From Candidatus Jorgensenbacteria bacterium (lineage in GTDB: Bacteria > Patescibacteriota > Minisyncoccia > UBA6257 > GWB1-50-10), in NCBI GenBank assembly GCA_043807585.1, contig JAZDFV010000002.1:25581-89580 (forward strand): DNA of 64,000 nucleotides, read 5' to 3'. Position numbers and translations under genes: made by a program. Of the stretch, positions 2,584 through 57,235 are shown piece after piece. The notes below the pieces were generated by a model. The model did no database searches and was not told the DNA's origin. It saw only the letters and a program-made list of their open reading frames with translations. Each line of letters starts with the position of its first letter. Position 1 is the stretch's first letter.

Positions 2584-2758
2584 TACGGTTACGATTGCTA
2601 CGAATTACGAATTTGGTACGAATATACGAAACGCTCCGCTTCTCTACGAATTACTAATTTCTTACGAATATACGAAAACGACTTCACATCTTATTAACAA
2701 TTTCGTATATTCGTATACTTTTCGTATTTCGTAGCCCTTTGGTACTTTCGTATGTTTT
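2584..2758. repeat. TACGAA/TTCGTA word-palindrome element (tandem TACGAA words followed by tandem TTCGTA words)
   Basis: Repeated tacgaa units occur on the left and ttcgta units on the right. The element is near-identical to 4126-4236. Confidence 0.8.
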
Positions 2759-3190: not shown

Positions 3191-3262
3191 GTTTACGATG
3201 ACTATGACTATAACTATGACTGGAATTCGTGGTCATCGTCATTGTCATTAGTCATTGTTTTT
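3191..3262. repeat. ATGAC/GTCAT word-palindrome upstream of ssb
   Basis: Words gactatgac x3 are followed by gtcatcgtcattgtcattagtcatt. Confidence 0.7.
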
Positions 3263-3828: not shown

Positions 3829-3924
3829 ACCACCATGACCATGACAATAACAATGACAGGGGAAGGGAAGGAAAGAAATTATTTTCCTGCTCGTCATAGT
3901 CATCGGTCATCGTTATCGTAATTT
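3829..3924. repeat. ATGAC/GTCAT word-palindrome downstream of ssb
   Basis: catgaccatgacaataacaatgaca ... tcgtcatagtcatcggtcatcg form an inverted word array. Confidence 0.7.
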
Positions 3925-4125: not shown

Positions 4126-4236
4126 CTACGAAATACGAATTTTTTACGAATTTACGAAAACGATTTATAACAGTTTCGTATATTCGTATTATTTCGTATT
4201 TCGTAGCCCTTAGGTATTTTCATATTTCGTAGCGCT
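4126..4236. repeat. TACGAA/TTCGTA word-palindrome element (second copy)
   Basis: About 100 nt are near-identical to 2620-2750 (acgaat.tacgaaaacga...tttcgtatattcgtat..tttcgtatttcgtagccctt.ggta). Confidence 0.8.
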
Positions 4237-5234: not shown

Positions 5235-6281
5235 CTAAGCGTTCCTTTTATCCCGCTTAGCGGGAATGGCGGCAAATTCTTTCAAATATTTTTTGACCTT
5301 TCCAATAAATAAATCAATTAATAGTATAAAAATTATTAAAAGCAAAATTACCAATAGTTTATGCGTTACCCAAAAGGCATTGATATATATCCAAATATCA
5401 TAGAAAAATCTGTCAAACCAATTGTAATCAGGCGAGGGGAATCTTATTACTTCTTTATTAGCTTTATCGCCATTAACATCTACTTTGATATAGTGATAAA
5501 AATAATGGTCGGGGTCCGTTCCCATTAGTTCAGAACCAGCGCCGCCGGTAATAATATAATTTATTCCATTTTTTGTTTCATCGAAATAAGCATGAATATG
5601 GGAAGCAAAAACAGTATCAACTTTATACTTTTCCATTAAATTAATAAATTCTTGAGCATTCTGTTTGTCGGATAGGGAATGATTGGTGTTGGGACGGGGG
5701 TCAAAAGCTGGCACATGTAAAAAGACAAATTTATGTTGATAGTTTCTCTGCAATTGTTCCTCCAGCCATTTCATCTGCACCGCATCAATTCTTGTTTCAT
5801 TAGCATCGTCTAAGACAACGAATAAAGAATTGCCATAATCAAATGAATAATAAAATTTGCCAAAAATATCAAAATAGTTTTCTGCCCCGCCCTCTCGGAT
5901 ATCGTGATTGCCAACCGCGACCAAAAACGGTGTCTGCTCGTTTTTTATCATATTGTAAAAGATCCGGTATTTTGCTTTTTCACCGTCATACACCAAATCC
6001 CCAACATCAATGGCAAAAGTATAGTGGTTGTTGTCAATATCTTTCAGAATTTTACTAAATATTTTGAAGCTATTTTTATTATCGCCCATCACGGCAAAGC
6101 TGAAGTTGTCTGAAGGCGCGGAAGAATGAATTTTATCAATTTGTTTTTGATTATAATTGCCCGGGCCAACCGGCAAATAATCGTTTAGGCCAATGGTTAT
6201 TAGCAAAATAGCAATGACAACAACGGCAGCAATATGACGCTTTTTAGAGAAATATTTTTTAAAATTATCTTTTAATGACAT
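5235..6281 (-). CDS. membrane-anchored calcineurin-like metallophosphoesterase
   Basis: Phosphoesterase motifs GD, GDLVYDG, GNHD and ASHIH are present, with N- and C-terminal hydrophobic segments. The start was chosen at the internal Met (MSLKDN) because the longer ORF runs into the tRNA-like fragment. Confidence 0.7.
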   Translation of the reverse strand: MSLKDNFKKYFSKKRHIAAVVVIAILLITIGLNDYLPVGPGNYNQKQIDKIHSSAPSDNFSFAVMGDNKNSFKIFSKILKDIDNNHYTFAIDVGDLVYDGEKAKYRIFYNMIKNEQTPFLVAVGNHDIREGGAENYFDIFGKFYYSFDYGNSLFVVLDDANETRIDAVQMKWLEEQLQRNYQHKFVFLHVPAFDPRPNTNHSLSDKQNAQEFINLMEKYKVDTVFASHIHAYFDETKNGINYIITGGAGSELMGTDPDHYFYHYIKVDVNGDKANKEVIRFPSPDYNWFDRFFYDIWIYINAFWVTHKLLVILLLIIFILLIDLFIGKVKKYLKEFAAIPAKRDKRNA

Positions 6282-6317
6282 ATGTTTGTGGGACGCTGAG
6301 CGTCCCGATAACAACGC

Positions 6318-6354
6318 TAAGCGTTGTGCCCGGGGTGGGGGTCGAACCCACACG
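6318..6354 (-). other. degenerate tRNA 3'-half-like fragment (T-arm plus acceptor 3' strand)
   Basis: The minus-strand sequence GTGGG-TTCGACC-CCCAC-CCCGGGC-A looks like a tRNA 3' half. It shares gaacccacacgg with the fragment at 9046-9115. Confidence 0.5.
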
Positions 6355-6363
6355 GCCTTGCGA

Positions 6364-6630
6364 TCACAGGAGTTCTTCAAGCCGTTCGCGTTCCTCGTTG
6401 ATCAGTTCTTGCCATGTGAACGTGCTTTTCCCGCACAGAAATTCCCGCTTCATTTTTTGGTTGTTGTAGAAGAAATTTATCCACGCCCTGCCTTCGGTCG
6501 CGAGATTCACAAAATTTGCTAGCTCTTGGTCGTTCGCCCTGCTGAACAATCTCATCAATTCGCCTCGCTCGATCCCTCCAAGGGTCGAATTTCTTACAAT
6601 GGTTTCAAGTTTGTATAAGTTCGATTCCAT
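6364..6630 (-). CDS. hypothetical protein (88 aa), translationally coupled to the upstream large gene
   Basis: The ORF lies 5 nt after the stop of the 6636..9044 gene, and the region is AT-rich. Confidence 0.4.
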   Translation of the reverse strand: MESNLYKLETIVRNSTLGGIERGELMRLFSRANDQELANFVNLATEGRAWINFFYNNQKMKREFLCGKSTFTWQELINEERERLEELL

Positions 6631-6635
6631 GTTGG

Positions 6636-9044
6636 TTATTTTTCCGGCGATAGGATTTTGTTGTAGGCCTTGAGGAAAAGCACGCCAAGGTTTTTGTCCG
6701 GAGCGACGTAATTTTTGAAATCCTTGTTATTTTTGAAGAGGTTGCCCGCTTTAGCCCAAAGTTCCTGCCATTTTATATTCTTGCCGCTTCGTATCTCATT
6801 GTTGAGCATCTTGAGAAGCTGGTCATTCACCAATTTTACCCCAGTTCCTTTTGTCGAGATGATGTGAGCGTTCGGCGCGCGTTCGAGAACCGCTGCCATG
6901 TTGTTATACCCGCCGCACGAGCCGAGCGATACTATTTTTGCGATTGGAGGTATTCTCTCGATTGTTTTATGGGCGTGATAGCTGTGCCCGCGATGAACTA
7001 CCACGATTGTTTCTATATGTTTCTGCGCGAGAATCTCGTCTATCTTTTTTGGACCCTCGTCCTCATAACTTGGACGGTTCGCATATATTTCGACTTTCTT
7101 TCCGATTCCTTGGGAAACGATCCGCACGTATTCTTTTTTTGCTTCTATGCGCCATTCCGGACTGCCGGCATATTGTGAAAGAAAATTTTTGAACGACCCA
7201 TCGCCGTCTTTGTCGTTATAGAAAAAATATTGCTGGATGTTCGTTCCGTCTTTGTTGAAGAGGTCTTTTGAGGGGATTTCAGTTAGGTTCTGAAGTTTAT
7301 ATTTCTCCGACATTTCGTGTATCCATTCCTTGTTTGCTATAGCTTTCTCGCCAAACATGCCGCTCAAAAGTCCGTAGAGCGTTTTTCCCTCTTCGCTGTT
7401 TTCATTTTTTGCGCGTTCGTATTCGTCTTTGATTTTATCCTGAAACACTTCCAATATTTTTTTGTCTTTCACTATACCAAAGATTTCAGCGACGGTTGTG
7501 GCTTGCATGAGCTTATCTCCCTCTTTCTCTATATTAGAAATAGATCTTTCGAGGACGGTTTTACGCGCGGTTTCGTCCATAGTGTTCAAAAAATCATCCA
7601 ATCTGTTAAAACTAGCGCAGAGTTTTATCAATGTTCTGAATTTATTGTAGCCGTTTTGCTCAAGCAATTGATCGCCGGAGACGTGTTCACTTTTCATTTT
7701 CTCCACAAATCTATTGAACAAACCATTGAACGATGAGGTAAACAACTCCTCATCCCCATAGGTCATGAGAAGGTAGAGTTTCTGTGAAGAATGGTTTTCA
7801 ACCGATTTGAAACGCACGGGGTCCGTTGCTTCATGCAGGTCATTTATTTGCCTTACTTCTTTCAGCACCATCGTCTTTAGATATTTATCAGCTATTTCAC
7901 TTCCAAGGTGGTCCGGACGACTTTTAATCTCCATTAGTTTTTCTAGGAATTTTCCATCGTTTTTTGCGATATTGGCCGTTTCCTCAAGGCTCGTATTTTT
8001 TCTTACGATTTCATCGGTTAGTGCACACATTTTTTCTTGAATGTCGGGCGCGTATGTTGATTTTTTAATTTTTGACAATGTCTGTATGAACGGATCTTTG
8101 CTTTCGTTAAGTATTTTATTCACTTCTCTCTCAATGCCTTTTTCATTATCGATTGTATTGTACGGATCTATAATACCTTCTGGAAATTGCTTGATTGCAT
8201 GCTCAATCATTTCCCTTGCATCGGTAGCAGACGCAAGATTATCTGCGTGTCTTAAAACTGCCCACGGTTCAGTGAAAGCCACTCTCTCAACTATTTTCTT
8301 TCCCCACGGTGTGTTTACAAAATTCTCTGCATGGAAAATTATTGTTGGTGCAGTATTTATTTGCGTTGCCGCTTTTTCTAGAATTTTTTGCGCGTATGGT
8401 TGTGTAATAAAACGGTCTGCAAATTCAAAGGCACCCCAAGGGTCGAAATCTGCCGCTTTTTCTATTATTTTTTCTGCGTAGGGCTCATCTATAAAACGGT
8501 CGGCGAACTCAAGTACTAAGGAATGATTTGTTTTGATAGCTTGCTCTACAACTCGTTTGAGAATATCTTTTCCATTTGGGATGTTTTTATAGTTTTCCGC
8601 ATAACGGAGTGCGCCATAACATCTAGAATAGGGAGGGGGTTGGAATCGCTGCGGATCTAGCATCCCTGCACTCTCATTAACAGCTCCCTCAATGATTTTG
8701 TATGCCCATGGTTTGTACTCGTAGCTATCCGCGACCTCAAGCGCATCAATTGGTTGAAGTCTTGCTAATTCTGCGTACGCTTGTTCATCCAATGAACGTT
8801 TTCCTTCAATCTCCTGTTCGTGGAATCTTGTATATTTGCTGTGCGCAGATTCTGGCCGATCCCTCATCTCCACGATCGAGAGGGTGGTAATGAGGGTAAG
8901 CGCTTTAATGACCAAGCCGCTTTTTTCACGGATTCGCCCGAGTATCGTTTTCTCTTCGGTCTCCAACTTCTCAACGCCCTTTTCCGCGGCGTTTTCTTGA
9001 ATTTCGTTCCCTTCCGGTGAATCGTTTTGTTTTTCGAAATCCAT
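6636..9044 (-). CDS. large helical-repeat (HEAT/TPR-like) protein with a C-terminal putative CHAT (caspase-like) peptidase domain
   Basis: About 38-aa repeats (ADRFI..PYA.KI.EKAA.FDPWGAFE) are followed by a His/Cys dyad-like VVVHRGHSYH ... IVSLGSCGGYN. The start was chosen at MDFEKQN because the longer ORF overlaps tRNA-Leu. Confidence 0.6.
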   Translation of the reverse strand: MDFEKQNDSPEGNEIQENAAEKGVEKLETEEKTILGRIREKSGLVIKALTLITTLSIVEMRDRPESAHSKYTRFHEQEIEGKRSLDEQAYAELARLQPIDALEVADSYEYKPWAYKIIEGAVNESAGMLDPQRFQPPPYSRCYGALRYAENYKNIPNGKDILKRVVEQAIKTNHSLVLEFADRFIDEPYAEKIIEKAADFDPWGAFEFADRFITQPYAQKILEKAATQINTAPTIIFHAENFVNTPWGKKIVERVAFTEPWAVLRHADNLASATDAREMIEHAIKQFPEGIIDPYNTIDNEKGIEREVNKILNESKDPFIQTLSKIKKSTYAPDIQEKMCALTDEIVRKNTSLEETANIAKNDGKFLEKLMEIKSRPDHLGSEIADKYLKTMVLKEVRQINDLHEATDPVRFKSVENHSSQKLYLLMTYGDEELFTSSFNGLFNRFVEKMKSEHVSGDQLLEQNGYNKFRTLIKLCASFNRLDDFLNTMDETARKTVLERSISNIEKEGDKLMQATTVAEIFGIVKDKKILEVFQDKIKDEYERAKNENSEEGKTLYGLLSGMFGEKAIANKEWIHEMSEKYKLQNLTEIPSKDLFNKDGTNIQQYFFYNDKDGDGSFKNFLSQYAGSPEWRIEAKKEYVRIVSQGIGKKVEIYANRPSYEDEGPKKIDEILAQKHIETIVVVHRGHSYHAHKTIERIPPIAKIVSLGSCGGYNNMAAVLERAPNAHIISTKGTGVKLVNDQLLKMLNNEIRSGKNIKWQELWAKAGNLFKNNKDFKNYVAPDKNLGVLFLKAYNKILSPEK

Positions 9045-9045
9045 A

Positions 9046-9115
9046 TTTTGTGTGGTGCCCGAGGTGGGAATCCCAGCCTTCGCCTGACTACGGACGGGCA
9101 GGGAACCCACACGGT
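9046..9115 (-). other. tRNA-like 3'-end fragment abutting tRNA-Leu
   Basis: The minus-strand sequence ends ...GATTCCCACCTCGGGCACCA, which resembles the tRNA-Leu 3' end GATTCCCTCCTCGCCCA. It shares ccgtgtgggttc with the 6318-6354 fragment. Confidence 0.45.
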
Positions 9116-9197
9116 GTGGGCGAGGAGGGAATCGAACCCTCATGGGTTGCCCCACACGATTTTGAGTCGTGCGCGTATACCGTTCCGCCACTCGCCC
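9116..9197 (-). tRNA. tRNA-Leu (anticodon CAA)
   Basis: Manual fold: acceptor GGGCGAG/CTCGCCC, anticodon stem CACGA/TCGTG with loop CTCAAAA, a long variable arm and T-arm GAGGG-TTCGATT-CCCTC. Confidence 0.85.
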
Positions 9198-10247: not shown

Positions 10248-10780
10248 TTGACCCCACATACAACTTGATTAGGTGAGGGGTTGACCACTTTTTCTAATCA
10301 TTTATTATTGTATTCGGCTCGCGTTGATGTGGGTGCTTTTGCAGGGGGCGGCGCATCCGGCCGGTGCGTAGTTCACTGCGGGGCGTTCAATAAAACGCGG
10401 ACCCGCGTGTATACACGTGCGCTAAGACAGAGGAAAGTTGGCGGCACGCGCGCGGGGCACTACTTCACATTCCGAGTTGCTCTTTATATTTCTTTTATTT
10501 TAGAACCTCGGAATGATAAACGAAGGAACGCACCGTGCACGGGCGGCTATACGCCTCTGTTTTAGTTTCCGTTGCTGGACCAAAAATCCCCATGGTGTGG
10601 GGATTTTTGCTGTCAGCAACAGGACCCAGCACCAATTTCGCCGTAGCCCCCGGTAAATTGTGTTTTATGAATTGATTGCGGGTCGCGCTCGCGGCGCGCG
10701 CGTGCCGTATAGGCACACCCCGTTGTGGGCGAAGCGCGTCGCTGCTACGCACTCCGCGAAATTGGTGCTGTGGTGCAGAC

Positions 10781-14466: not shown

Positions 14467-14510
14467 TCAATATTGATTTGATGAAACCGCCCTCAGTCAC
14501 CGGTGAGAGT

Positions 14511-14528
14511 GCTATGCTGTAGCATAGC
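14511..14528. promoter_or_regulatory. palindromic operator-like site GCTATGCTgTAGCATAGC (copy 1 of 3)
   Basis: It is an 18-bp palindrome with one mismatch, and the same palindrome occurs at 14611 and 15111. Confidence 0.55.
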
Positions 14529-14610
14529 GCCTGACTTGACCTTCATCTTCTTTCCATCCCGTTTCTTCTTTCCATCCCGCCTCCTCTTTTTCCATCCTGC
14601 CTTCCTGCCC

Positions 14611-14628
14611 GCTATGCTATAGCATAGC
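14611..14628. promoter_or_regulatory. palindromic operator-like site GCTATGCTATAGCATAGC (copy 2)
   Basis: It is a perfect 18-bp palindrome about 30 nt upstream of the TrpR-like gene. Confidence 0.55.
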
Positions 14629-14655
14629 AGCATGCTATACTAGTTTTGTGAATTT

Positions 14656-15108
14656 ATGAACAAAAAAGTCGCCGACAAGACGAACGAGATGAAGAAGGAA
14701 AAAAACGGGGTGATGCCGCTCGTCAGCGATTATTCTTCCCGGACAGAGTGGGAAACCGCTTGCTGGCGGAAGCTCCTCCAATCCAAAGAATTACTCCGAT
14801 TACTCGTTACTTCTCACGAACGTCATAACTTGGTAATGCGGGCCGCGGCTTTAGACCGACTTATTGCCGGTAAAAGCTACAAGCAAATTGGTAGAGAACT
14901 ATGGCTTTCGCCCCAAACCATCAGCGGTATCAAAAAAGCTCTAAAGGAAAAGAGCTATCAGAGCTATCAGAGCTATCAGAGCTATCTGGAGCGGAGTAAA
15001 AAAGAACGAAAAAAGAGAAAATACAGCTTCAATTCCCTCCCTGCCAAAGCAAGGTCTCGCGGCCGGCCTCACCGCACAAAGTACGGGACGATTTATCTGC
15101 CCTTCTAA
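14656..15108 (+). CDS. TrpR/YerC-YecD-like small DNA-binding protein
   Basis: An HTH region (SYKQIGRELWLSPQTISGIKKA) resembles the Trp-repressor/YerC family. It contains an SYQSYQSYQSY run encoded by a 9-nt tandem repeat. Confidence 0.6.
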   Translation: MNKKVADKTNEMKKEKNGVMPLVSDYSSRTEWETACWRKLLQSKELLRLLVTSHERHNLVMRAAALDRLIAGKSYKQIGRELWLSPQTISGIKKALKEKSYQSYQSYQSYLERSKKERKKRKYSFNSLPAKARSRGRPHRTKYGTIYLPF

Positions 15109-15110
15109 GT

Positions 15111-15128
15111 ACTATGCTATAGCATAGC
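15111..15128. promoter_or_regulatory. palindromic operator-like site (copy 3), immediately after the TrpR-like gene
   Basis: The sequence is actatgctatagcatagcgg. Confidence 0.5.
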
Positions 15129-15589
15129 GGGACAGATGAGTTTATTTATCAAGGAGGGATTTGCGGGCGAAACCGACTAAAACCGCATCCATCCTCCTTC
15201 GCTCCAACTTTTCGTCGGAGTTTCGGAAGGACAAGCAGCCGCGCCCTCCTTGCCTTCGCTCAATCCTCGGCAGGTGGGCCTGCCCGTCCGAAGCTGCAGC
15301 GGAGGAGGGTCCGCCGCAGAAATTCAGGCAATTTATAACCCCGCTCAATAGAGCCATCCCTGCCTGCCGCCCGCCCGTCGCCTGCCTGCCGGTAGGCAGG
15401 GTCGGCAGGACAGGCAGGTACAACGCAGGCCAATAATTAATCAAGGCGTACTTGTGCACCGCTCATCTTTTGGAGGATTGCCCCAAGGGTGAGGAGGATC
15501 GGTTCCGACCTCGCCTCTTGACAAGTCAAGGTTCCTCCCTATACTTATCAATTGTGATTAGCAACAAAAGGTCGTTGGTGCTAACAACC

Positions 15590-15696
15590 GATCCGAAACC
15601 ACGAATCCATCCGAATGCTCCGAATGAATCCGAATGTTTCGTAGCAATTTGTAGATTCGGATGTGTTCGTAGATTAGGATCGCGAAAGCGAAGCGC
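15590..15696. repeat. CCGAATG/CATTCGG word-palindrome upstream of groES
   Basis: ccgaatgctccgaatgaatccgaatg is followed by ttcggatg..ttcgtagattagg. Confidence 0.6.
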
Positions 15697-15990
15697 ATGT
15701 TCAAACCACTCTCAAATAAAGTATTCATAGAGGCGGCGGAGGATGAGCAGCAGAAGACCAAGTCTGGTATCGTGCTCCCCGAGACCGCCGAGAAGGAGAA
15801 ATTTGTGAAAGGTTCCGTGGTCGCGGTGGGGCCGGGTAAGATGAACGACAAAGGTGAGCGCCTACCCATGGCGGTGAAGGTTGGCGACCGCGTCCTTTTC
15901 AAGAAACCCTGGTCGGGGGATGAGCTTGAGGCGGACGGGAAGAAGCTCTTGGTGGTGGATGAGGAGGATATACTCGCGATCGTAGAATGA
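15697..15990 (+). CDS. groES: co-chaperonin GroES
   Basis: The 97-aa ORF has a GroES sequence. Confidence 0.95.
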   Translation: MFKPLSNKVFIEAAEDEQQKTKSGIVLPETAEKEKFVKGSVVAVGPGKMNDKGERLPMAVKVGDRVLFKKPWSGDELEADGKKLLVVDEEDILAIVE

Positions 15991-16000
15991 TCGCGACAAG

Positions 16001-16127
16001 CACCAAATCCCAAGCACCAAATCCCAAATAAACTCCAATCGCTGAAATCTTGGTACAATAATTGAGACGGTTTTGAATTTGGAATTTGAGATTTATTTGT
16101 AATTTGGAATTTGTGGTTTGGAATTTC
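16001..16127. repeat. CCAAAT/ATTTGG word-palindrome element (copy upstream of groEL)
   Basis: caccaaatcccaagcaccaaatcccaaat ... ttggaatttgagatttatttgtaatttggaatttgtggtttggaatttc; the same family occurs at 50641 and 56311. Confidence 0.75.
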
Positions 16128-16135
16128 AACTAATT

Positions 16136-17761
16136 ATGGCCAAAGAAATTAAATTCAACGAAGAGGCCCGCGTGGCCTTGAAGAAAGGCATTGATAAGCT
16201 TGCCGAGGCGGTCCGGATGACCCTGGGTCCGCGCGGCCGCGCGGTGGTCATAGAGAAGGGCTATGGCGCCCCGCAGGTGACCTTTGACGGTGTTACGGTG
16301 GCGAAGGAGATAGAGCTTGAAGGGAAGTACGAGAACCTCGGCGCAGAGTTCATCAAGCAGGCTGCCGAGAAAACGAACGACACGGTGGGAGATGGCACCT
16401 CGACGGCGGTGGTGTTGGCCCACGCGATGATAGAGGAGGGAGAAAAAGCCATCCGCGAGAAGGGGTTCAACGTCATCCACCTTGCGGAGGAGATCCGGAG
16501 GGCGAGCGAGAAGATCGTGAAATACCTCAACGAGCATAAAGAACCGATCAACGACAATAAGAAGGTGGAGGAGGTAGCGACCCTCTCCGCGAAGGATGCG
16601 GAGATAGGGAAGCTCATCGCCGAGGTGATGGCGAAGGTCGGCAAGGAGGGCGTGGTCTCGGTGGAGGATTCCAACACCATCGGGAATTCTTACGATATGG
16701 TGGAGGGACTCCAATTCGACCGCGGCTACATTTCACCCTACATGATCACCAACCAGGAGCGCATGGAGGCGGTCTTGGAAGACCCCTACATTCTCCTCAC
16801 GGATAAGAAAATTTCTTCCATCAACGATCTTCTGCCACTCCTGGAGAAGATCGTGACGAGCGGCAAGAAAGAGCTCCTCATCATCGCCGACGAGGTGGAG
16901 GGTGAAGCGCTCGCCACGCTCGTGGTGAACAAACTCCGCGGCGTCTTCAGCGTTTTGGCGGTGAAGGCACCCGGTTTCGGCGACCGGAAGAAAGAAATGC
17001 TTCAGGATATCGCCATTGTGACCGGTGCGACGTTCGTTTCGGAAGATCTCGGGAAGAAACTTGAGAATGTGAGCGTGGCGGAACTCGGCCACGCGCACCG
17101 CGTGGCGGCGACCAAGGACAATACCACCATCGTGGGCGGCAAAGGCGACAAAAAGCAAATCGAGGACCGCATCGCTCAGATCAAGACGCAGGTGAAGAAG
17201 ACCGACTCCGAGTTTGACAAGGAGAAATTGCAGGAGCGGCTGGGGAAGCTCGCGGGAGGTGTCGCGGTCATCAAGGTGGGTGCGCCTACGGAATCCGCCC
17301 AGAAAGAATTGAAGCAGAGGGTTGAGGACGCGGTAGCGGCGACCCGCGCGGCGATGGAGGAAGGTATTGTGCCGGGCGGCGGAATCGCGCTTTTCAACGC
17401 CACGAGTGCCCTGGCGGCCGGTTCTGGGGAGGCTCCGTCGGTTGAGGCGGAACTCATCCTCCGGAGGACATTGGAGGCGCCGCTCAAGGCGATTATCGCT
17501 AACAGCGGAGAATCACCGGATGGTATGATCCTGGAAATCAGGAAGCAGAATCCGAAGAACCCCTGGGTTGGCTTCAACGCGATGACGAACGCGATCGGAG
17601 ACCTCAAGGAGGCCGGTATCATTGATCCCCTGAAGGTGGTGAAGACAGCATTCGTAAACGCCGTTTCAGTTGCCGCGAACTACCTTACTATCGGCGCCGC
17701 TATCACCGAGATTCCGAAGAGGGAACCGCCCCCGCCGCCCGGCGGAATGGGGGAGTACTGA
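16136..17761 (+). CDS. groEL: chaperonin GroEL
   Basis: It is a full-length GroEL whose C-terminus is PPPPPGGMGEY. Confidence 0.95.
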   Translation: MAKEIKFNEEARVALKKGIDKLAEAVRMTLGPRGRAVVIEKGYGAPQVTFDGVTVAKEIELEGKYENLGAEFIKQAAEKTNDTVGDGTSTAVVLAHAMIEEGEKAIREKGFNVIHLAEEIRRASEKIVKYLNEHKEPINDNKKVEEVATLSAKDAEIGKLIAEVMAKVGKEGVVSVEDSNTIGNSYDMVEGLQFDRGYISPYMITNQERMEAVLEDPYILLTDKKISSINDLLPLLEKIVTSGKKELLIIADEVEGEALATLVVNKLRGVFSVLAVKAPGFGDRKKEMLQDIAIVTGATFVSEDLGKKLENVSVAELGHAHRVAATKDNTTIVGGKGDKKQIEDRIAQIKTQVKKTDSEFDKEKLQERLGKLAGGVAVIKVGAPTESAQKELKQRVEDAVAATRAAMEEGIVPGGGIALFNATSALAAGSGEAPSVEAELILRRTLEAPLKAIIANSGESPDGMILEIRKQNPKNPWVGFNAMTNAIGDLKEAGIIDPLKVVKTAFVNAVSVAANYLTIGAAITEIPKREPPPPPGGMGEY

Positions 17762-18916: not shown

Positions 18917-19471
18917 ATGAAAAAAGTTTGGTGGATCATTCTGGCGGTAGTGGTCGTGGTGCTCCTCTACGGGTGGAGCGCATACAACGGGTTTGTCGGG
19001 AAGAACGAGGCGGTCGACAATCAGTGGGCGCAGGTGGAGAGCCAGTACCAGCGCCGGCTGGACCTCATCCCGAACCTCGTGGAATCGGTGAAGGGGATGA
19101 TGAAGCAGGAGCAGGCCATTTTTGATACCTTAGCCGAGGCGCGGACGAAGTATGCGGGGGCGGCGACAGTGGACGCAAAAGCCGCCGCGGCGGGGGCTGT
19201 GGAAACCGCACTCGGGCGTTTGCTCGCGGTCGTGGAGAACTACCCGACGCTCAAATCGTCCGAGAACGTGCAGACGCTCATGGCGCAGCTTGAGGGCACC
19301 GAGAACCGGGTTTCGGTGGAACGCCAGCGCTTCAACGATACTGTGCGTGTGCTGAACGTAGCGGTGAAAACGTTTCCCTCGAACGTGATTGCCGGCATTT
19401 TCGGGTTCGGCGAGCGCACCTACTTTGAGGCGGCGGCAGGCGCCGAGAATGCTCCCGCGGTTCAGTTTTAA
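18917..19471 (+). CDS. lemA: LemA family protein
   Basis: It has an N-terminal TM segment and a LemA-like sequence. Confidence 0.85.
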   Translation: MKKVWWIILAVVVVVLLYGWSAYNGFVGKNEAVDNQWAQVESQYQRRLDLIPNLVESVKGMMKQEQAIFDTLAEARTKYAGAATVDAKAAAAGAVETALGRLLAVVENYPTLKSSENVQTLMAQLEGTENRVSVERQRFNDTVRVLNVAVKTFPSNVIAGIFGFGERTYFEAAAGAENAPAVQF

Positions 19472-19476
19472 TGTTT

Positions 19477-19508
19477 TGAGGTTCGACCTCCCCAAGGAGG
19501 TCGAACCT
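19477..19508 (+). terminator. hairpin gaggttcgacctcc/ggaggtcgaacctc after lemA
   Basis: It is a 14-bp perfect inverted repeat of the CCTCC/GGAGG hairpin family. Confidence 0.6.
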
Positions 19509-19557
19509 CCCAAAATTGGGATAGAAGAGAATCCCTTATGCTGTGTTTATCTTCTCT

Positions 19558-20508: not shown

Positions 20509-20546
20509 TTATCACATTAAATCGCGACCGCGATTTAATGTGATAA
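20509..20546. repeat. 38-bp near-perfect palindrome ttatcacattaaatcgcgaccgcgatttaatgtgataa
   Basis: It is palindromic and has a near-identical copy at 21153-21190, on the other side of the PaaX-like gene. Confidence 0.8.
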
Positions 20547-20570: not shown

Positions 20571-21152
20571 TTAGAGGTGGAAATGGTGTTTTAACTTCTC
20601 CGCACCTTCGAAATTGCCGACCTCTAAAATGAGAACATTATTCCGATCAATCTCAAAAACACTGCAGATAAAATCTATTTCATTCTCACACTCATAAGGG
20701 GTAATAAACACGCTCTTTTGGAGCGGATAAAATCCCAAATCTTTTACTTTAGCTCGTAATGCATTTCTCGCATTCTTTTGGTAGTCGGGTATATCGAATG
20801 TGACAAGTCGCCATTTCCCGTCCCATGACCGCTCTTCCAATTTCATTTGGTCGAGATCGTAGGTGAGTATCTTATTCTTTCCCAGTTTGGTGAGCGTGAT
20901 TTTTATCTTTCCGTCCGGCAATTGAACATAGTCAATGAGTTCCCTGTCCTGGAGCCTTTTGAGGTCCTGAAGAAACCTTTCTTTCCGTATTTTCTTGTTC
21001 TTGAGATATTGTTTTATCAGTTTCCTTACTATAAGTGCGCCGCTTGTCGGTGAAATGGTGCCGATGAGGAGAACGCCGCCGGCCGCGAGAACGGTTTTTA
21101 GAACGTGATAGGGTTTGGAATTTTTCCTCATCTTTGCGACCATAGCTTTCAT
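20571..21152 (-). CDS. membrane-anchored PaaX-like protein (C-terminal Cas2-fold PaaX_C-like region), AT-rich
   Basis: The C-terminal region WDGKWRLVTFDIPDYQK..R..LR..VKDLGFYPLQKSVFITP resembles a PaaX C-domain. One N-terminal TM segment is predicted. Confidence 0.5.
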   Translation of the reverse strand: MKAMVAKMRKNSKPYHVLKTVLAAGGVLLIGTISPTSGALIVRKLIKQYLKNKKIRKERFLQDLKRLQDRELIDYVQLPDGKIKITLTKLGKNKILTYDLDQMKLEERSWDGKWRLVTFDIPDYQKNARNALRAKVKDLGFYPLQKSVFITPYECENEIDFICSVFEIDRNNVLILEVGNFEGAEKLKHHFHL

Positions 21153-21190
21153 TATATCACATTAACTCTCGGTCGCGATTTAATGTGATA
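21153..21190. repeat. second copy of the 38-bp palindrome (tatatcacattaactctcggtcgcgatttaatgtgata)
   Basis: See 20509-20546. Confidence 0.8.
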
Positions 21191-21257: not shown

Positions 21258-21342
21258 GGAGGGGTGCGCGAGTGGTTTAAACGGCAGTCCTGGAAAGACT
21301 GTGTACCGCAAGGTACCGCGAGTTCGAATCTCGCCCCCTCCG
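21258..21342 (+). tRNA. tRNA-Ser (anticodon GGA)
   Basis: Manual fold: acceptor GGAGGGG/CCCCTCC, anticodon stem CAGTC/GACTG with loop CTGGAAA, a long variable arm and a T-arm around GTTCGAATC. Confidence 0.8.
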
Positions 21343-21465
21343 CTTTGTGCGGGAGAAAGCGAAAAAAGTTGTAGGAGAATCCCTCCCCCTCCGCTACAAC
21401 AATGCAGTGCCTCTTTGCGTGGCGCCGCGCTGGCGCTATGATAGAGAGGATTTTCTGAATCACGC

Positions 21466-25440: not shown

Positions 25441-25518
25441 GTACACCCCGTTAGAGACAAGCCGCCCCTTGGCGGCTGTAGCCCCGCCTTTGGCATGGCG
25501 GTCTCTAACGGGGTACAC
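25441..25518. repeat. CCGTTAG-TIR element copy B
   Basis: gtacaccccgttagagac ... gtctctaacggggtacac is a perfect 18-bp TIR. Confidence 0.8.
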
Positions 25519-25529
25519 TGGGAAGTGCC

Positions 25530-31090: not shown

Positions 31091-32890
31091 ATGTCTGAAT
31101 CAGAAACAATAGTTTGTCAGAATTGTCATAGTTCCTTCGTCATTGAATCGGAGGATTTTACGTTCTACGAGAAAATAAAAGTCCCGCCGCCGACGTGGTG
31201 CCCGGAGTGCGACAGTGCAAAGAGAATGACTTGGAGAAACGAGAGATCTTTGTATTGGCGCGATTGCGGTTTGTGCGGTAAGAAAACACTCTCGATGTAT
31301 TCAAAAGAAAATCCTTTTACTGTTTATTGTCATAAATGTTGGATATCGGATAAGTGGGACTCATTAGTATTCGGGAGAGATTATGATTTTCAGAAAGATT
31401 TTTTCACGCAATTTTCAGAACTCCAAAAAAGCGTACCCCGCGCCTCGGTTCTCCAATATGGGACCAGTGTAAATTGCGAATTTACAAACTACACCAGAAA
31501 CACAAAAAATGTCCTCCTAGCCTATTCGGTTTCTACCGGTGAAAATATATATTATTCATTCACTGTAGATTGGTCTAAAGACGCGTTGGATTCTTTAATG
31601 TTGAAGAATTCCGAATTGATATTTGAAGGATTTAATTCGGATCATTGTTATAATTCTCAATTTCTCGTAGATTGCCGCGATTGCACCGAATCATCGTATT
31701 TGTATGATTGTGTGAACTGCCAGAATTGTTTTATGTCGGTGAACCTTAGAAACAAACAGTTCGTTTTTTATGGAAGACAGCTTTCGAAAGAAGAATATAG
31801 CAAAGCAATTTTAGAAATTGATATCGGAAGTTTTGAGACGAGGGGAAGATTAAAAGAAGAATTTCATAATGTTATTTTGCAAACAATTCATAAGTATGGA
31901 GATGTAGTTAAGGTTGTTAACTGCACCGGCAACTATCTTTCGAATTGCAAAAACGTGAAAAATTCATATAGCGTGTATGATTCCGAGAACGTAAGAAACA
32001 CCATTCGCGCCTTGAAAGCGAGAGACATCAGGAGTGTTTTTAGCTGCGGAGAAGGGAGCGAACTTATTTATAGCGGGATTGTCGGTGGCAAAACCAGTTC
32101 TAATATAAAATTTTTTGCAAGTGCGGATGTGCTACGCGAATCGCAATACACCGATTGGTGTTTAAGTTCATCAAATCTCTTCGGCTGCATCGGCCTTCGC
32201 AACAAGCAGTACTGCATCCTTAACAAGCAATACACGAAGGAGGAATATGAAGCCCTTGTACCCCGCATCATCGACCACATGAACACCATGCCCTATGTAG
32301 ATACCAAGGGCAGGATATACAAATATGGCGAGTTCTTCCCCCCGGAATTGTCTCCCTTCGCCTACAACGAAACCATCGCACAGGAGTATTTCCCCCTGAC
32401 CAAGGATAAAGCTATTCAACAGGGCTACCGCTGGAGGGACGCGGATACGAGAGATTACAAAATAACCAAGAGACCGGAGGATCTCCCCGACCACATCAAA
32501 GATGTAGAGGATGCAATATTGAAAGAAACCATCCAATGCATGCACCACCCTTCGGCAGGCTCAGGGCAGGCCGCCTGCAATCACCAATGCACCACCGCCT
32601 TCAAGGTTATCCCAGAAGAACTTGCCTTCTACCGCAGAATGAACCTCCCGCTCCCACGTCTTTGCCCCAACTGCCGGCACTACGAACGCCTAAAGCAGCG
32701 GAATCCCCTGAAGCTCTGGCACCGCACCTGCCAGTGTGCGGGAGGAAAAAGCGAGAACGGTGTCTACGAGAACACCATAACCCACCCACACGGCACCGGC
32801 CACTGCCTAAACGAATTCGAGACCAGTTACGCTCCAGAGAGAAAGGAAATCGTGTACTGCGAGAGTTGTTATAATACTGAAGTGGTATGA
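31091..32890 (+). CDS. Cys-rich protein (599 aa) with homologous N- and C-terminal double zinc-ribbon modules flanking internal Cys/Asn-rich repeats
   Basis: Multiple CxxC pairs are present. The termini are related (F.I..E..FY......P..CP.C ... LW.R.C), and there is an internal repeat (CFMSVNLRNKQFVFYGRQLSKEEYSKA / CIGLRNKQYCILNKQYTKEEYEAL). Confidence 0.7.
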   Translation: MSESETIVCQNCHSSFVIESEDFTFYEKIKVPPPTWCPECDSAKRMTWRNERSLYWRDCGLCGKKTLSMYSKENPFTVYCHKCWISDKWDSLVFGRDYDFQKDFFTQFSELQKSVPRASVLQYGTSVNCEFTNYTRNTKNVLLAYSVSTGENIYYSFTVDWSKDALDSLMLKNSELIFEGFNSDHCYNSQFLVDCRDCTESSYLYDCVNCQNCFMSVNLRNKQFVFYGRQLSKEEYSKAILEIDIGSFETRGRLKEEFHNVILQTIHKYGDVVKVVNCTGNYLSNCKNVKNSYSVYDSENVRNTIRALKARDIRSVFSCGEGSELIYSGIVGGKTSSNIKFFASADVLRESQYTDWCLSSSNLFGCIGLRNKQYCILNKQYTKEEYEALVPRIIDHMNTMPYVDTKGRIYKYGEFFPPELSPFAYNETIAQEYFPLTKDKAIQQGYRWRDADTRDYKITKRPEDLPDHIKDVEDAILKETIQCMHHPSAGSGQAACNHQCTTAFKVIPEELAFYRRMNLPLPRLCPNCRHYERLKQRNPLKLWHRTCQCAGGKSENGVYENTITHPHGTGHCLNEFETSYAPERKEIVYCESCYNTEVV

Positions 32891-35454: not shown

Positions 35455-35456
35455 TT

Positions 35457-35495
35457 AAAAAACCGTCCTGAGTTTACCGAAGGGCGGTTTTTTTG
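35457..35495. terminator. bidirectional terminator hairpin between the convergent T4CP-like gene and efp
   Basis: aaaaaccgtcctgagtttaccgaagggcggttttttt forms the hairpin. Confidence 0.7.
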
Positions 35496-37918: not shown

Positions 37919-39403
37919 ATGTCAAGTACTAAGAAAAGGGTATTCATTGCGATGTCCCCGAAGCAATCCCTTCGGGATGCTACGGGGCAGGCCGGCGGCG
38001 TGAAGCGGCCGAGGGTTTTTGTTGCGATGAGTGGGGGCGTGGATTCCTCCGTCGCGGCATTGCTGTTGAAAAAAGCCGGCTACGATTGCGTGGGCGTTTT
38101 TATGAAATGCTGGAGTGGAAACGGCCCCTCGGCATCGCTCGGGGCAAGTTGCGCGGAGCGGGATGCGGAGGATGCGCGGCGGGTCGCGGAACATATCGGC
38201 ATACCGTTCTACGTCTTTGATTTTGAGGAGGAATACAAAAAGCGGGTGGTGGAATATATGGTGGAGGGCTACCGCGCTGGTATTACGCCCAACCCTGACG
38301 TGATGTGCAACCGGGAGATAAAGTTCGGGCTGTTCTTGAAACGGGCGCTCGCGCTCGGGGCGGATTATGTGGCGACGGGGCACTACGTCCGTCTGCGGCG
38401 GAATGATGAATTTAGAATTTCTAATTTTGAATCAATTTCTAATTCCAGAATTAACAATTCAAACATTCAATCAAAATTCAAAATTGAGAATTCAAAATTT
38501 GGTCTTTTTCAGGCGAAGGACTTGAATAAAGACCAAAGTTATTTTTTATGGACATTGACCCAGAAGCAACTAAAATACTGCCTTTTCCCCATCGGTGATT
38601 ATCTGAAGTCCGAGGTGCGCGAAATTGCACGGAAGGCGGGGCTCCCCACCGCGGAGAAAAAGGACTCGCAGGGCATCTGTTTCCTGGGCGATGTCCCACT
38701 CAAGGACTTTTTGAAGCAGTATTTGCCGGAGCGGGAGGGGCCAGTGGTGCTTGCCCTGAGCGGAGCCGAAGGGACGGTGTATAAGAAAATAGGGGAGCAT
38801 GAGGGGGCGCATTTCTACACTATCGGTCAGCGCCACGGATTTTTGGTGCAAATGGCAAAGGGCTCCGATGGCAGAGCCATCGCGAGTCCACGACAAAGTC
38901 GGGACAAAGGGCAAAGCAAGGGAGAAACTAAGCCGCACTACATAGCGGCGAAGGATGTCGCAACAAATACGCTTATAGTTGCCGAAGGGAGTGATCACCC
39001 GTCGCTCTTTCAAAGAGAGGTCTCATTAACCGACATCAATTTCATCAATCCACATTCATTAGAAATTGGAAATTGTCTCGCTACGCGAGATCCCGCGAAG
39101 CGGGAGAAATTGGAAATTCCCGTGCTCGCACGGGTGCGGTACCGCCAGCCGCTCTTTGAAGCGACGCTGATTTACTCTGATGGGGAGCGGATAAATGCTG
39201 ATGGAAATCCGTATAAATCAGTTTCAAAATCCGCATCAATCCGCATAGTTTTCAAAAACCCTCAAAAATTCGTCGCTCCCGGCCAGTCCGCGGTGTTTTA
39301 TTTACCCGCCCGTAGCGGTGCGAAGGCGGGCTTGCCCGTCCGAAGCTCGGCGAAGGAGGGTCGCGAGGAGCTTGAAATGTTGGGTGGCGGAATGATTTTG
39401 TAA
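37919..39403 (+). CDS. mnmA: tRNA 2-thiouridine synthase MnmA carrying three in-frame repeat-derived insertions
   Basis: A PP-loop (SGGVDSS) is present, and the ORF is about 130 aa longer than typical MnmA. Insertions sit at 38401-38505 (AT word-palindrome), about 38870-38945, and 39073-39106 (palindromic repeat), and a repeat-derived C-terminal tail follows from about 39325. Confidence 0.85.
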   Translation: MSSTKKRVFIAMSPKQSLRDATGQAGGVKRPRVFVAMSGGVDSSVAALLLKKAGYDCVGVFMKCWSGNGPSASLGASCAERDAEDARRVAEHIGIPFYVFDFEEEYKKRVVEYMVEGYRAGITPNPDVMCNREIKFGLFLKRALALGADYVATGHYVRLRRNDEFRISNFESISNSRINNSNIQSKFKIENSKFGLFQAKDLNKDQSYFLWTLTQKQLKYCLFPIGDYLKSEVREIARKAGLPTAEKKDSQGICFLGDVPLKDFLKQYLPEREGPVVLALSGAEGTVYKKIGEHEGAHFYTIGQRHGFLVQMAKGSDGRAIASPRQSRDKGQSKGETKPHYIAAKDVATNTLIVAEGSDHPSLFQREVSLTDINFINPHSLEIGNCLATRDPAKREKLEIPVLARVRYRQPLFEATLIYSDGERINADGNPYKSVSKSASIRIVFKNPQKFVAPGQSAVFYLPARSGAKAGLPVRSSAKEGREELEMLGGGMIL

Positions 39404-39489: not shown

Positions 39490-39600
39490 TATTGGTCGTA
39501 AGTTATTTGTTAGACGCTGATAAACGCTGATTTGCAGAACGCTGATTTACGCCGATGTTATCAGTCATAAGTTATCAGTCATAAGTTATAAGTTACTCCC
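39490..39600. repeat. CGCTGAT/ATCAG word-palindrome upstream of comEC
   Basis: acgctgat x3 is followed by atcagtcataagtt x2. Confidence 0.6.
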
Positions 39601-56310: not shown

Positions 56311-56462
56311 AAAATTGAAATTTGAGTCCAACCCATAAAAATTCCAAATGACAAATTCCAAATCTCAAATAATATCCAATAGCCTAAATTCCAAACTTTT
56401 CGGAGGTTGGTATTTGAGATTTGGTATTTATTTGTTATTTGGTGCTTGGAATTTGAGATTTC
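56311..56462. repeat. CCAAAT/ATTTGG word-palindrome element (copy upstream of rplD)
   Basis: aaattccaaatgacaaattccaaatctcaaat ... ggtatttgagatttggtatttatttgttatttggtgcttggaatttgagatttc. Confidence 0.75.
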
Positions 56463-56469
56463 TAAACTT

Positions 56470-57093: not shown

Positions 57094-57124
57094 TTTTTCA
57101 TGATCATGAATCCCGTTAGAGACA

Positions 57125-57235
57125 ACTAAGATACCTACCTATGCAACTCCATATTTATAAACACAAAACATTAATTAGCAGCGAAAGGGCCGTGGCTATT
57201 ACGGTCGCCTATGGCGACCTGTCTCTAACGGGATG
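57125..57235. repeat. CCGTTAG-TIR element copy E whose right TIR contains the rplW start codon
   Basis: catgaatcccgttagagaca ... tgtctctaacgggATGaaa. Confidence 0.8.

Follow-up and report, generated by a model that had tools for sequence, protein, structure and literature searches.

A 64,000-nt stretch of a Candidatus Jorgensenbacteria genome (assembly GCA_043807585.1, contig JAZDFV010000002.1, positions 25,581 to 89,580; hereafter the window) contains at least 10 spacers built on one plan, with a 5-7-nt word occurring 3-4 times and copies of its reverse complement coming after it. These word-built spacers are predicted to fold into hairpins of 60-130 nt. We consider it probable that these word palindromes constitute several families of small invasive palindromic elements, akin to miniature inverted-repeat transposable elements (MITEs) and to the intervening sequences (IVSs) of ribosomal RNA (rRNA), together with gene-less derivatives. 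The elements populate transcribed spacers and occasionally coding sequence in this Patescibacteria lineage and a few others, including some Acidobacteriota. They fall into families, relatives of some of them surround cargo genes, orthologous sites differ in what they hold, and one copy sits in frame in a gene; the gain, loss, nesting and replacement of copies far outpace change in the genes around them, and from this material we infer that the word-type elements move. A first-pass annotation had described the architecture for many spacers and had suggested a common generating mechanism, such as slippage on hairpin templates, or a common function, such as promoter UP-like elements or nucleoid-protein sites, an interpretation that is partly supported by the analysis below.

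Word-built hairpins in the window

The window, which is gene-dense and Paceibacteria-like, carries, in order, the end of rpoC, rpsF-ssb-rpsR, groES-groEL, dnaG-rpoD, alaS, mnmA and comEC, followed by rpsL-rpsG-fusA-tuf-rpsJ and then the S10/spc ribosomal-protein genes, and its G+C content is 54% overall with many spacers at 30-40%. A scan for 6-mers occurring at least twice and followed within 120 nt by at least two reverse-complement copies returned 8 loci in the window, compared with a mean of 0.33 and a maximum of 2 in locally shuffled sequence, and the same scan with 7-mers returned 3 loci and none in the shuffles. Under a stricter rule of at least three copies of a 5-mer plus at least three of its reverse complement, we found 7 loci in the window and 45 over the 2.44 Mb made up of the window and all fetched loci, again with none in shuffled sequence. 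The spacers noticed in the first-pass annotation are therefore real, and they share one architecture while using different words. Nine of the 12 candidate regions fold clearly better than dinucleotide shuffles (z -1.7 to -6.5), and the comEC, tuf-rpsJ and rplN-rplX regions do not. The elements are 60-135 nt long with arms that are 74-96% complementary, have a tandem-repeat period of 7 nt in most cases and 6 or 9 nt in some, are distributed over the entire 64 kb, and are present in many other genomes. Most copies are intra-operonic, lying between the stop codon of one gene and the next gene's start codon, with stems that start 0-15 nt past the stop and finish 9-42 nt ahead of the ATG (7 window cases). 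The regions are as follows, with the predicted folding energy (dG, in kcal/mol) and the z-score against shuffles where available.

2597-2735, + strand: TACGAA element between the rpoC stop (2583) and the rpsF ATG (2759); dG -39.5 kcal/mol, z -6.5
3195-3258, + strand: ATGAC hairpin in the rpsF-ssb spacer; dG -23.8, z -4.0
3832-3912, + strand: ATGAC hairpin in the ssb-rpsR spacer; dG -24.5, z -2.3
4127-4205, + strand: TACGAA hairpin 1 nt past the rpsR stop, 5' of a PAP2 gene (ATG 4237); dG -33.0, z -5.2
15589-15682, + strand: CCGAAT(G)-word hairpin in the groES 5' leader; dG -36.1, z -3.7
16003-16121, + strand: CCAAAT hairpin in the groES-groEL spacer (stop 15990, ATG 16136); dG -30.9, z -1.7
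38402-38499, + strand: GAATTT/AAATTC word palindrome of 98 nt, in frame in mnmA
39516-39595, + strand: CGCTGAT direct repeats followed by (GTTATCAGTCATAA)n, 5' of comEC; a weak and doubtful member, z -0.65
50642-50769, + strand: CCAAAT hairpin in the rpsG-fusA spacer; dG -35.4, z -4.1
53033-53126, + strand: ATACGAAT hairpin with a 9-nt period, before tuf (ATG 53155); dG -32.3, z -3.4
54434-54503, + strand: ACGAMC / GGTCGT word hairpin before rpsJ, weak; z -0.3
56326-56459, + strand: CCAAAT hairpin in the rplC-rplD spacer (rplD ATG 56470); dG -39.8, z -4.6
62600-62701, + strand: direct-only arrays ATAAATCCGT and AAATCAGC in the rplN-rplX spacer, no palindrome; z -0.4

The 5' arm of the element at 2597-2735 is present twice (2597-2631 and 2644-2677) and the 3' arm once (2701-2735), which marks the element as a nested or partly duplicated copy; its words are spaced 7, 11 and 8 nt on the 5' side and 8, 11 and 7 nt on the 3' side. 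The first-pass list, which placed the TACGAA word at rpsF and tuf, was incomplete, the word occurring additionally 3' of rpsR, where the hairpin at 4127-4205 has spacings of 7, 11, 8 / 8, 10, 7 and ends in (G)CTAC...GTAGC, as do the arms that flank GxxExxY genes in other genomes (see below). Likewise, the ATGAC word assigned to ssb recurs 5' of rpsR. The arms of the rpsF-ssb hairpin read ATGACT ATGACT ATAACT ATGACT and GTCATC GTCATT GTCATT-A-GTCATT, and the ssb-rpsR hairpin is its paralogue, with an arm reading ATGACC ATGACA ATAACA ATGACA; both keep the series ATGACN ATGACN ATAACN ATGACN, with one shared variant in third place.

The three CCAAAT elements before groEL, fusA and rplD were proposed to be homologous, and alignment bears this out, with 73% column identity and a near-identical 3' arm that ends 9-14 nt upstream of the ATG; the rpsG-fusA copy fills its spacer, from 0 nt past the stop to 9 nt before the ATG at 50779. 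Together with copies in two other genomes (L081 and the Portnoybacteria locus L161; L numbers denote fetched loci), there are five copies, which have a conserved stem of 25 pairs in common and show little covariation, a pattern that a young repeat family would give. At rplD, the start of the longest open reading frame (ORF), TTG 56407, crosses the 3' arm of the hairpin and the real start is ATG 56470, as in L081, so gene callers can be misled by such elements (here over 56407-56469).

The remaining regions are more varied. The span 15590-16127, presented earlier as one feature, does contain word hairpins, namely two separate ones on either side of groES (15697-15990). Between the groES leader hairpin and the groES ATG at 15697 lies the tail GCGAAAGCGAAGCGC, and the hairpin before tuf has the tail GTGTAAGCGAAGCGATATT. 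The hairpin before rpsJ and the groES-groEL element of L174-176, described below, are members of one family. The rplN-rplX arrays are composed of related words that also occur in frame in mnmA at 39186-39250. Direct arrays make up 62600-62701 and part of 39516-39595, and the inclusion of the comEC CGCTGAT repeats among the palindromes is doubtful, as that region consists mainly of direct repeats without significant structure; the same applies to the tuf-rpsJ region.

A side observation concerns the tails: (G/T)AAGCGAAGCG or a close variant precedes the ATG of groES and tuf in the window (15683-15696 and 53135-53154) and of rplF and rpsN in L081 (17520-17533 and 16735-16751, the last with GTAAGTGAAGCG). 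These tails follow CGAAT-type word hairpins and contain GCGAAGC, a motif that forms a very stable mini-hairpin. Upstream of the groES leader hairpin, and outside the element, lies a sigma-70-like promoter site, TTGACA-17-TATACT, at 15519-15548, and then an inverted repeat TTAGCAACA-N9-TGGTGCTAA at 15559-15585, which we take to be CIRCE-like on the presumed consensus TTAGCACTC-N9-GAGTGCTAA; L178 has the canonical TTAGCACTC-N9-GAGTGCTAA at the equivalent place. The possibility that the leader hairpin is itself CIRCE, the HrcA operator, was rejected, the CIRCE-like repeat being a separate feature upstream of it.

A gathering-threshold scan of the whole window with Rfam 15 matched a tRNA-Leu alone (9117-9197) and no relevant family, and when 15300-16200 was scanned by E-value the sole match was a miRNA attributable to chance (E 0.35); in these scans the elements match no Rfam family. 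The window is free of rRNA genes by the Rfam scan, and every copy is located either in an mRNA spacer or in mnmA. Intrinsic terminators were also considered and rejected, since the stems are A+T-rich and have no T run 3' of the second arm; typical terminators do occur elsewhere in the window, e.g., at 35455-35495 and 19470-19517. ARAGORN additionally reports tRNA-Ser(GGA) at 21258-21343 and tRNA-Pro(GGG) at 47009-47080.

The copy in mnmA lies in the coding sequence itself. The mnmA ORF (37919-39403) stays open across the in-frame 98-nt palindrome at 38402-38499, and at that point the product has an extra segment of about 26-33 residues (NDEFRISNFESISNSRINNSNIQSKFKIENSKF) relative to the solved MnmA structure 9hlv and to the HUP domain of Pfam. 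This in-frame copy sits poorly with a role as promoter, operator or intercistronic regulatory element. The same gene holds two further A+T-rich in-frame arrays, AGAAATTGGAAATTG...GAGAAATTGGAAATTCC around a G+C-rich stem at 39040-39120 and AAATCCGTATAAATCAG...AAATCCGCATCAATCCGCATA at 39186-39250, both of which are extra residues relative to solved MnmA structures.

Turnover at orthologous sites and cargo genes

The source genome is represented by this one 64-kb window and the related loci by metagenome assemblies, with sampling anchored on tuf, rplD, groEL and one subfamily of GxxExxY genes. Eighty tuf-anchored loci were fetched from reference genomes, an rplD-anchored metagenome scan provided L081 and L082, whose coding DNA matches that of the window at 80-88% identity, and GroEL look-ups provided L174-176 and L177 (96% GroEL identity in both cases) and L178 (81%).

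At the groES-groEL spacer, the window has a CCAAAT hairpin, L174-176 have a CGACAAA/GGTCGT hairpin and L177 has a CACGAAT/ATTCGTG hairpin; the groES leader hairpin is likewise replaced by an unrelated structure in L174-176. The ssb-rpsR spacer, occupied by a 96-nt ATGAC hairpin in the window, is 18 nt long in L174 and contains no element. When about 16 ribosomal-protein spacers of the window were set beside their orthologues in L081, the same element was found at only 2, rplC-rplD (L081 9878-10000) and rplN-rplX (L081 15638-15791), and L081 holds homologues of window copies in other spacers, such as the pre-tuf element at S8-L6. The comparison of orthologous spacers suggested in the first-pass annotation thus gave the outcome foreseen there: words differ and the architecture is kept. 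L082, which is 99.9% identical to L081, differs from it by an extra complete TACGAA element nested in the loop of another.

The rpsF-ssb element is common to the window and L174, but its 3' arm counts 4 GTCATY units in the former and 7 in the latter, from which it follows that slippage acts on the arrays. As such, the earlier proposal of slippage survives as far as word copy number is concerned and no further, because the fixed four-word layout described next argues against slippage as the generator; replication slippage adjusts the number of words only.

TACGAA-type copies number 3 in the 64-kb window and at least 5 in 20 kb of L081, and TACGAA hairpins with word spacing 7, 10-11, 8 / 8, 10-12, 7 occur in the window and in L081, L002, L015, L089, L090 and L173, the four-word layout being fixed in more than 12 genomes. 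The word architecture was also found, among the 80 tuf-anchored loci, in the Patescibacteria L002, L010, L015, L031 and L032 and in two Acidobacteriota, L060 (GATTGAC) and L066 (AATTACG, ATTAACA and ATTTTGA); in these other Patescibacteria and Acidobacteriota, the elements likewise lie just 5' of the ATGs of ribosomal-protein genes. The majority of the 80 genomes lack such elements. The window has the longest median spacer in the tuf operon region among the sampled loci (156 nt), compared with 4 nt in L001, its closest relative by tuf (86% identity), and on this basis the elements are lineage-specific additions to an originally compact operon. Larger inserts also occur in these operons: L081 carries a DUF5667 gene and a Phd/ParE-like toxin-antitoxin pair between fusA and tuf (5266-7127), and many genomes of the candidate phyla radiation (CPR) have inserts of 400-1100 nt at the S7-fusA junction (L003, L004, L005, L012, L014, L025, L031 and L033).

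Full-length relatives of the hairpins carry genes. The S7-fusA spacer of L081 consists, after the stop codon, of GCTACGAAATACGAAATGGGTACGAATGTACGAAAGG, a 134-aa ORF, GTTTCGTATATTCGTAATATTTCGTATTTCGTAGC and the fusA ATG, and the ORF encodes a GxxExxY protein (Pfam PF13366 PDDEXK_3, E 7e-25; NCBIfam TIGR04256). We collected nine distinct GxxExxY genes or contexts, five at S7-fusA, which in the window is the rpsG-fusA spacer filled by a CCAAAT hairpin (L081/82, L007, L098, L165-170 and L173), and four between unrelated genes (L161, L163, L171, where it is SecD-SecF, and L172). All nine genes are co-oriented with their operon, and each of the nine is enclosed by inverted word arms, one directly against the preceding stop and the other against the following ATG. 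In eight contexts the 5' arm has four TACNNA words at spacings of 7, 10-11 and 8, mirrored in the 3' arm as 8, 10-12 and 7; nearly all eight words are alike within an element, and between elements they vary as TACGAA, TACTAA, TACGGA and TACAGA. The ninth context, L098, has ACTAATT/AATTAGT arms with a different layout. TACGAA arms surround a different ORF, of 136 aa, in L022, and in L178 the groES-groEL spacer contains a gene for a four-helix-bundle "23S rRNA IVS protein" (PF05635/TIGR02436) between partly complementary TGACNAA-type flanks. The full-length versions thus carry a GxxExxY nuclease, the 136-aa ORF or the four-helix-bundle gene, and no transposase was recognised in them.

The GxxExxY protein is modelled (pLDDT 92) as a small PD-(D/E)XK fold, and a fold search with the model gave weak matches to Cas4, alkaline exonuclease, tRNA-splicing endonuclease and Hjc resolvase (template-modelling score, TM, 0.45-0.55). 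On the strength of this model, the protein is predicted to be a nuclease, with fold matches that do not fix its substrate; its sequence had no match among solved structures. A profile search found no GxxExxY gene in the window or in the Acidobacteriota loci, and the window copies are ORF-less. The gene-less TACGAA hairpins of the window (2599-2752 and 4127-4210), like those of L081, L002, L015, L089, L090 and L173, share the conserved layout and the GCTAC...GTAGC ends of the cargo-bearing elements and are miniature members of that family. A search for remnants of GxxExxY genes in the loops of gene-less copies was not convincing. A scan of viral contigs for GCTACGAAATACGAAAT gave 7 matches, all of them chance occurrences in coding sequence, with no hairpin and no GxxExxY gene.

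Proposed nature of the elements and competing explanations

In the arrangement that we propose, each arm is a short array, typically of four copies of a 6-7-nt word, with the other arm as its mirror image. The loop of full-length versions contains a small gene that runs in the direction of the host operon, this being a GxxExxY PD-(D/E)XK nuclease in the TACGAA family and the four-helix-bundle "23S rRNA IVS protein" in the groES-groEL spacer of a relative, and the window has only gene-less miniature versions. Pairing of the arms within the polycistronic mRNA may be what makes the insert tolerable: RNase III would cut the stem out, as in rRNA intervening sequences, or, alternatively, pairing would place the stop of the upstream gene close to the start of the downstream one. 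The repeated words may serve as recognition sites of the element's own nuclease. One of the genomes with such hairpins has a gene for RNase III (L161 999-1703).

Two arguments for selection at the RNA level were given up. Plus and minus strands of the hairpins fold about equally well, and in 188 strongly folding spacers of low-GC loci, single mismatches number 57 of the G.U type and 47 of the A.C type (p = 0.38), so we dropped the claim that the sense RNA is the selected form; arm complementarity over the full length is predicted by a hairpin and by a terminal inverted repeat alike. The argument that a loss of Shine-Dalgarno (SD) motifs indicates translational coupling was also abandoned: SD-like motifs are rare in all three gene classes of the window (2/10, 0/10 and 5/25; 7/45 genes), which makes their absence after hairpins uninformative.

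More tentatively, and with the odds in our estimate against it, the GxxExxY (TIGR04256) nucleases could be the mobility or homing enzymes of mini-cassettes, with the gene-less hairpins mobilised in trans. Word arrays would then co-evolve with the nuclease, giving the TACGAA, TACTAA, TACGGA and TACAGA variants, and the paired arrays would make an insertion silent between cistrons, in an rRNA helix or in a protein loop, with transcript pairing allowing RNase III excision or stop-start juxtaposition. Such a scheme, if true, would bring under one explanation the intervening sequences of rRNA, the "IVS proteins" with their four-helix bundle and the mini GIY-YIG genes found in CPR genomes.

Several points weigh against reading the word palindromes as invasive elements. 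No transposase and no target-site duplication were found for the word-type elements. Cargo versions were found for the TACGAA family only, none being seen for the CCAAAT, CCGAAT and ATGAC families in about 2.4 Mb of fetched loci, and the sampled GxxExxY genes come from one subfamily, at least 58% identical to the query except in L007 and L098. The difference between L081 and L082 is a loop replacement, not a clean insertion, and could have arisen as an artefact of metagenome assembly. Two elements, those of rplC-rplD and rpsF-ssb, are kept at orthologous sites, and the precise stop-start placement, often before highly expressed genes, could reflect a host function, in a sample that is biased to such operons.

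The last two of these points lead to the alternative that survives best, which we nevertheless regard as unlikely: the hairpins would be intercistronic mRNA structures of benefit to the host, acting as RNase III sites, as stabilisers against exonucleases or in stop-start coupling, and genes would have settled in their loops later. The close spacing of the stems to stop and ATG in the 7 window cases is what such structures would show, as is their occurrence 5' of rpsF, ssb, rpsR, groES, groEL, fusA, tuf and rplD, the co-orientation of cargo genes with the operon without exception, and the retention of rplC-rplD in L081 and rpsF-ssb in L174; stoichiometry-setting intercistronic stem-loops are described for other bacteria (PMC10311766). 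A host function is difficult to square, however, with absence from close relatives (the 4-nt median of L001 and the 18-nt ssb-rpsR spacer of L174), with three unrelated word families in one spacer at 96% GroEL identity, with the copy in the mnmA coding sequence, with the lack of a G.U excess over A.C mismatches on the sense strand, or with the presence of the same arms around GxxExxY genes between unrelated gene pairs. Within the invasive-element reading, some conserved copies (rplC-rplD and rpsF-ssb) may still benefit the host.

A more improbable origin, in our judgement, is in situ growth of microsatellites, in which a seed word would be multiplied by slippage and inverted by template switching (quasipalindrome correction) without any mobility. 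That layout and spacing of four words are fixed in more than 12 genomes argues against it, as do homologous copies at unrelated sites of one genome, conserved arms around cargo genes and the identical third-word variant ATAAC in the two ATGAC paralogues; for the CCAAAT and TACGAA families, copies of the same genome are suggested to be each other's closest relatives. This explanation does draw on the 4 versus 7 units of the rpsF-ssb arm, on the direct-only arrays at 62600-62701 and at L22-S3 of L081, and on the empty ssb-rpsR spacer of L174, which begins with ATGTCAC and so resembles the ATGAC word. Heptamers are, moreover, the commonest long simple repeats in many bacteria, according to the summary of Mrazek 2007 in PMC4679880.

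Arrays bound by proteins at the DNA level (UP-like elements, operators, nucleoid-protein or iteron-like sites, two of which the first-pass annotation had suggested) are highly improbable: regularly spaced words, four per arm, do resemble many multi-site protein-binding regions, the strand symmetry of the hairpins is compatible with such a role and one copy lies directly 3' of the groES promoter and the CIRCE-like site, but most copies are operon-internal where no promoter is needed, one is within coding sequence, arms of the same kind bracket cargo genes, near-identical relatives have empty sites or unrelated words, and the words vary between loci of one genome in a way that a single regulator could not read. 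All three alternatives are weakened by the same set of observations, i.e., turnover, the four-word layout with its fixed spacing, the presence of cargo genes and the copy inside mnmA.

Known systems and further elements of the window

Among the systems that come closest to the word palindromes are the intervening sequences of rRNA. In a survey of CPR rRNA genes (PMC11270868), non-intron insertions encoding GIY-YIG and 23S_rRNA_IVP proteins are reported, and many short ORF-less insertions are thought to be intervening sequences cut by RNase III. Like these, the present elements are hairpin-forming inserts in highly transcribed DNA with an optional loop ORF and a sporadic distribution, and 23S_rRNA_IVP and GIY-YIG cargo, found there in CPR rRNA, is found here in mRNA spacers of relatives. 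In contrast, the present elements lie between cistrons or in a gene and do not extend a 16S/23S rRNA helix, their arms are iterated 6-7-nt words, and GxxExxY cargo is not among the families named for rRNA insertions in the passages of that survey considered here (PMC11270868).

The elements also have much in common with MITEs. They are imperfect palindromes of 100-150 nt that form dispersed families, are transcribed in intergenic regions, are predicted to fold in mRNA and vary in presence between related strains, all of which we understand to hold for MITEs as well, and they are under 300 bp with terminal inverted repeats and multiple dispersed homologous copies. Correia/nemis elements of Neisseria and ERIC/IRU of enterobacteria are bacterial MITEs transcribed within operons. 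Unlike MITEs, the elements have no related transposase-bearing insertion sequence in the loci examined, their arms are repeated-word arrays in place of a unique terminal inverted repeat, and their cargo is a small nuclease or four-helix-bundle gene. A known MITE family had been named in the first-pass annotation as what would undo its view of the architecture; the data essentially point to elements of the MITE kind, and no named family was identified.

Extragenic palindromic repeats that form long hairpins as inverted doublets, and a single small nuclease-type gene that is itself flanked by repeats, are shared with the REP/BIME/REPIN (RAYT) systems (PMC3116915, PMC3337134). The present gene is, unlike RAYT, a PF13366 protein of PD-(D/E)XK fold and not an HUH/Y1 transposase, and the unit is a 6-7-nt word repeated about 4 times in an arm that is not itself palindromic, compared with the imperfect palindrome of 20-40 nt, in tens to hundreds of copies, that makes up REP. 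REP elements carry a conserved tetranucleotide, of which the CTAC...GTAG ends of the TACGAA family are reminiscent. For the in-frame copy, a precedent is said to exist in the Rickettsia palindromic elements (RPE), which Ogata et al. in 2000 reportedly found inserted in frame in protein-coding genes; the mnmA palindrome at 38402-38499 is similarly an in-frame palindromic repeat that has not destroyed its gene, in an unrelated lineage and with an unrelated sequence (the two being set apart without direct sequence comparison), and most of the present copies are intergenic. Cyanobacterial STRR sequences are heptamer simple repeats of a related kind to the TAACTGA repeats. The latter occur in Beggiatoaceae, Cyanobacteria and Bacteroidetes (PMC4679880) and resemble the present arrays in their period of about 7 nt, in lying directly 5' of SD-less start codons, including those of fusA and ribosomal-protein genes, and in a patchy distribution over several phyla; TAACTGA-containing arrays occur in L081. 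However, those repeats are direct and predicted to be unstructured, with 1 inverted case in 170 sets (PMC4679880), whereas most present loci have an inverted second array and a stable fold.

No known system fits fully, because of the combination of arms made of short words at fixed spacing, cargo that is not a transposase, and a niche between stop and start codons of highly expressed operons. Full-text literature searches returned no description of the architecture and no functional context for GxxExxY/PF13366, either of which may still have been published. The invasive-element reading would account for the 100-250-nt spacers between ribosomal-protein and chaperonin genes in certain CPR genomes of streamlined content, the usual length in bacteria being about 10-30 nt. 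It would give the large GxxExxY family its first genomic context, and with it a testable function, and would link that family to the rRNA "IVS protein" and mini GIY-YIG genes. It would also mean that selfish DNA in reduced genomes has entered essential operons with the highest expression and, in addition, coding sequence, where the hairpin architecture may render such insertions harmless. In practical terms, the elements would be fast-evolving strain markers and a cause of assembly breaks and gene-calling errors in CPR bins, e.g., the false upstream start of rplD (56407) and an mnmA that is too long.

A second class of spacer element, of 120-250-nt units with inner inverted repeats ACCCAGCACATAAAAGTA...TACTTTTATGTGCTGGGTG or CCCCGTTAG...CTAACGGGG, fills most window spacers from rplD to rpsN. 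Its members are as follows.

49957-50173: second-class element
55756-55877: second-class element
57094-57232: second-class element, L4-L23 spacer
57605-57852: second-class element
59031-59262: second-class element
59821-60039: second-class element
60721-60887: second-class element
61299-61519: second-class element
61992-62186: second-class element
63549-63762: second-class element
25470-25529: a further second-class element

This class points towards the same invasive-element reading. An element of the CCCGTTAG...CTAACGGG type was caught at a filled and an empty orthologous site: the L4-L23 spacer is empty in L081 (tttttcATGATTATGAAACTC, 10625-10630) and filled in the window (tttttcATGATCATGAA[123 nt]ATGAAACTC, 57094-57232), with a 5-bp duplication, ATGAA, that regenerates the rplW start codon, and an 87% identical copy of the window element lies one spacer downstream in L081 (11015-11137). 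The ATGAA duplication belongs to this CCCGTTAG-type neighbour only, none having been recognised for word-type elements. In L172 and L173, small GIY-YIG genes are bracketed by CCCCGTTAG/CTAACGGGG repeats, and the 3' arm of the class, TAC TTT TAT GTG CTG GGT, would read YFYVLG, like the first strand of GIY-YIG. In GIY-YIG-type spacers the sequence that adjoins the ATG is ...AAAWWWNGGC, with GGC-ATG in 7/10 and no SD-like motif. The ending occupies the last ~12 nt before each of the following positions.

before 50174: spacer with AAAWWWNGGC end
before 57853: spacer with AAAWWWNGGC end
before 59263: spacer with AAAWWWNGGC end
before 60040: spacer with AAAWWWNGGC end
before 60888: spacer with AAAWWWNGGC end
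before 62187: spacer with AAAWWWNGGC end
before 63763: spacer with AAAWWWNGGC end

Other palindromes and atypical genes are scattered through the window. Palindromes containing TATCACATTAAATCGCG (20509-20546 and 21153-21190) flank a minus-strand gene with a PaaX_M / Cas2-like domain (20571-21152). Palindromes of the TGCTATGCTGTAGCATAGCG type (14510-14629 and 15110-15138) bracket three 18-20-nt TCTTTCCATCCCGCCTCC repeats, a further copy follows a TrpR-like ORF (14656-15108) in the same 14510-15138 region, and a G+C-rich CCTGCC/GGCAGG word palindrome lies at 15359-15418. Between rpsJ and rplC, a 161-aa ORF (55061-55546) with a third-position G+C of 0.32 and no Pfam match is preceded by perfect or near-perfect palindromes (54951-55000 and 54998-55037) and looks like an inserted foreign gene. 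Finally, the ORFs at 5235-9191 and 31091-32890, which include a metallophosphatase and an 851-aa protein without a clear domain, have a third-position G+C of 0.37-0.51 compared with about 0.75 in core genes and are probably acquired DNA.

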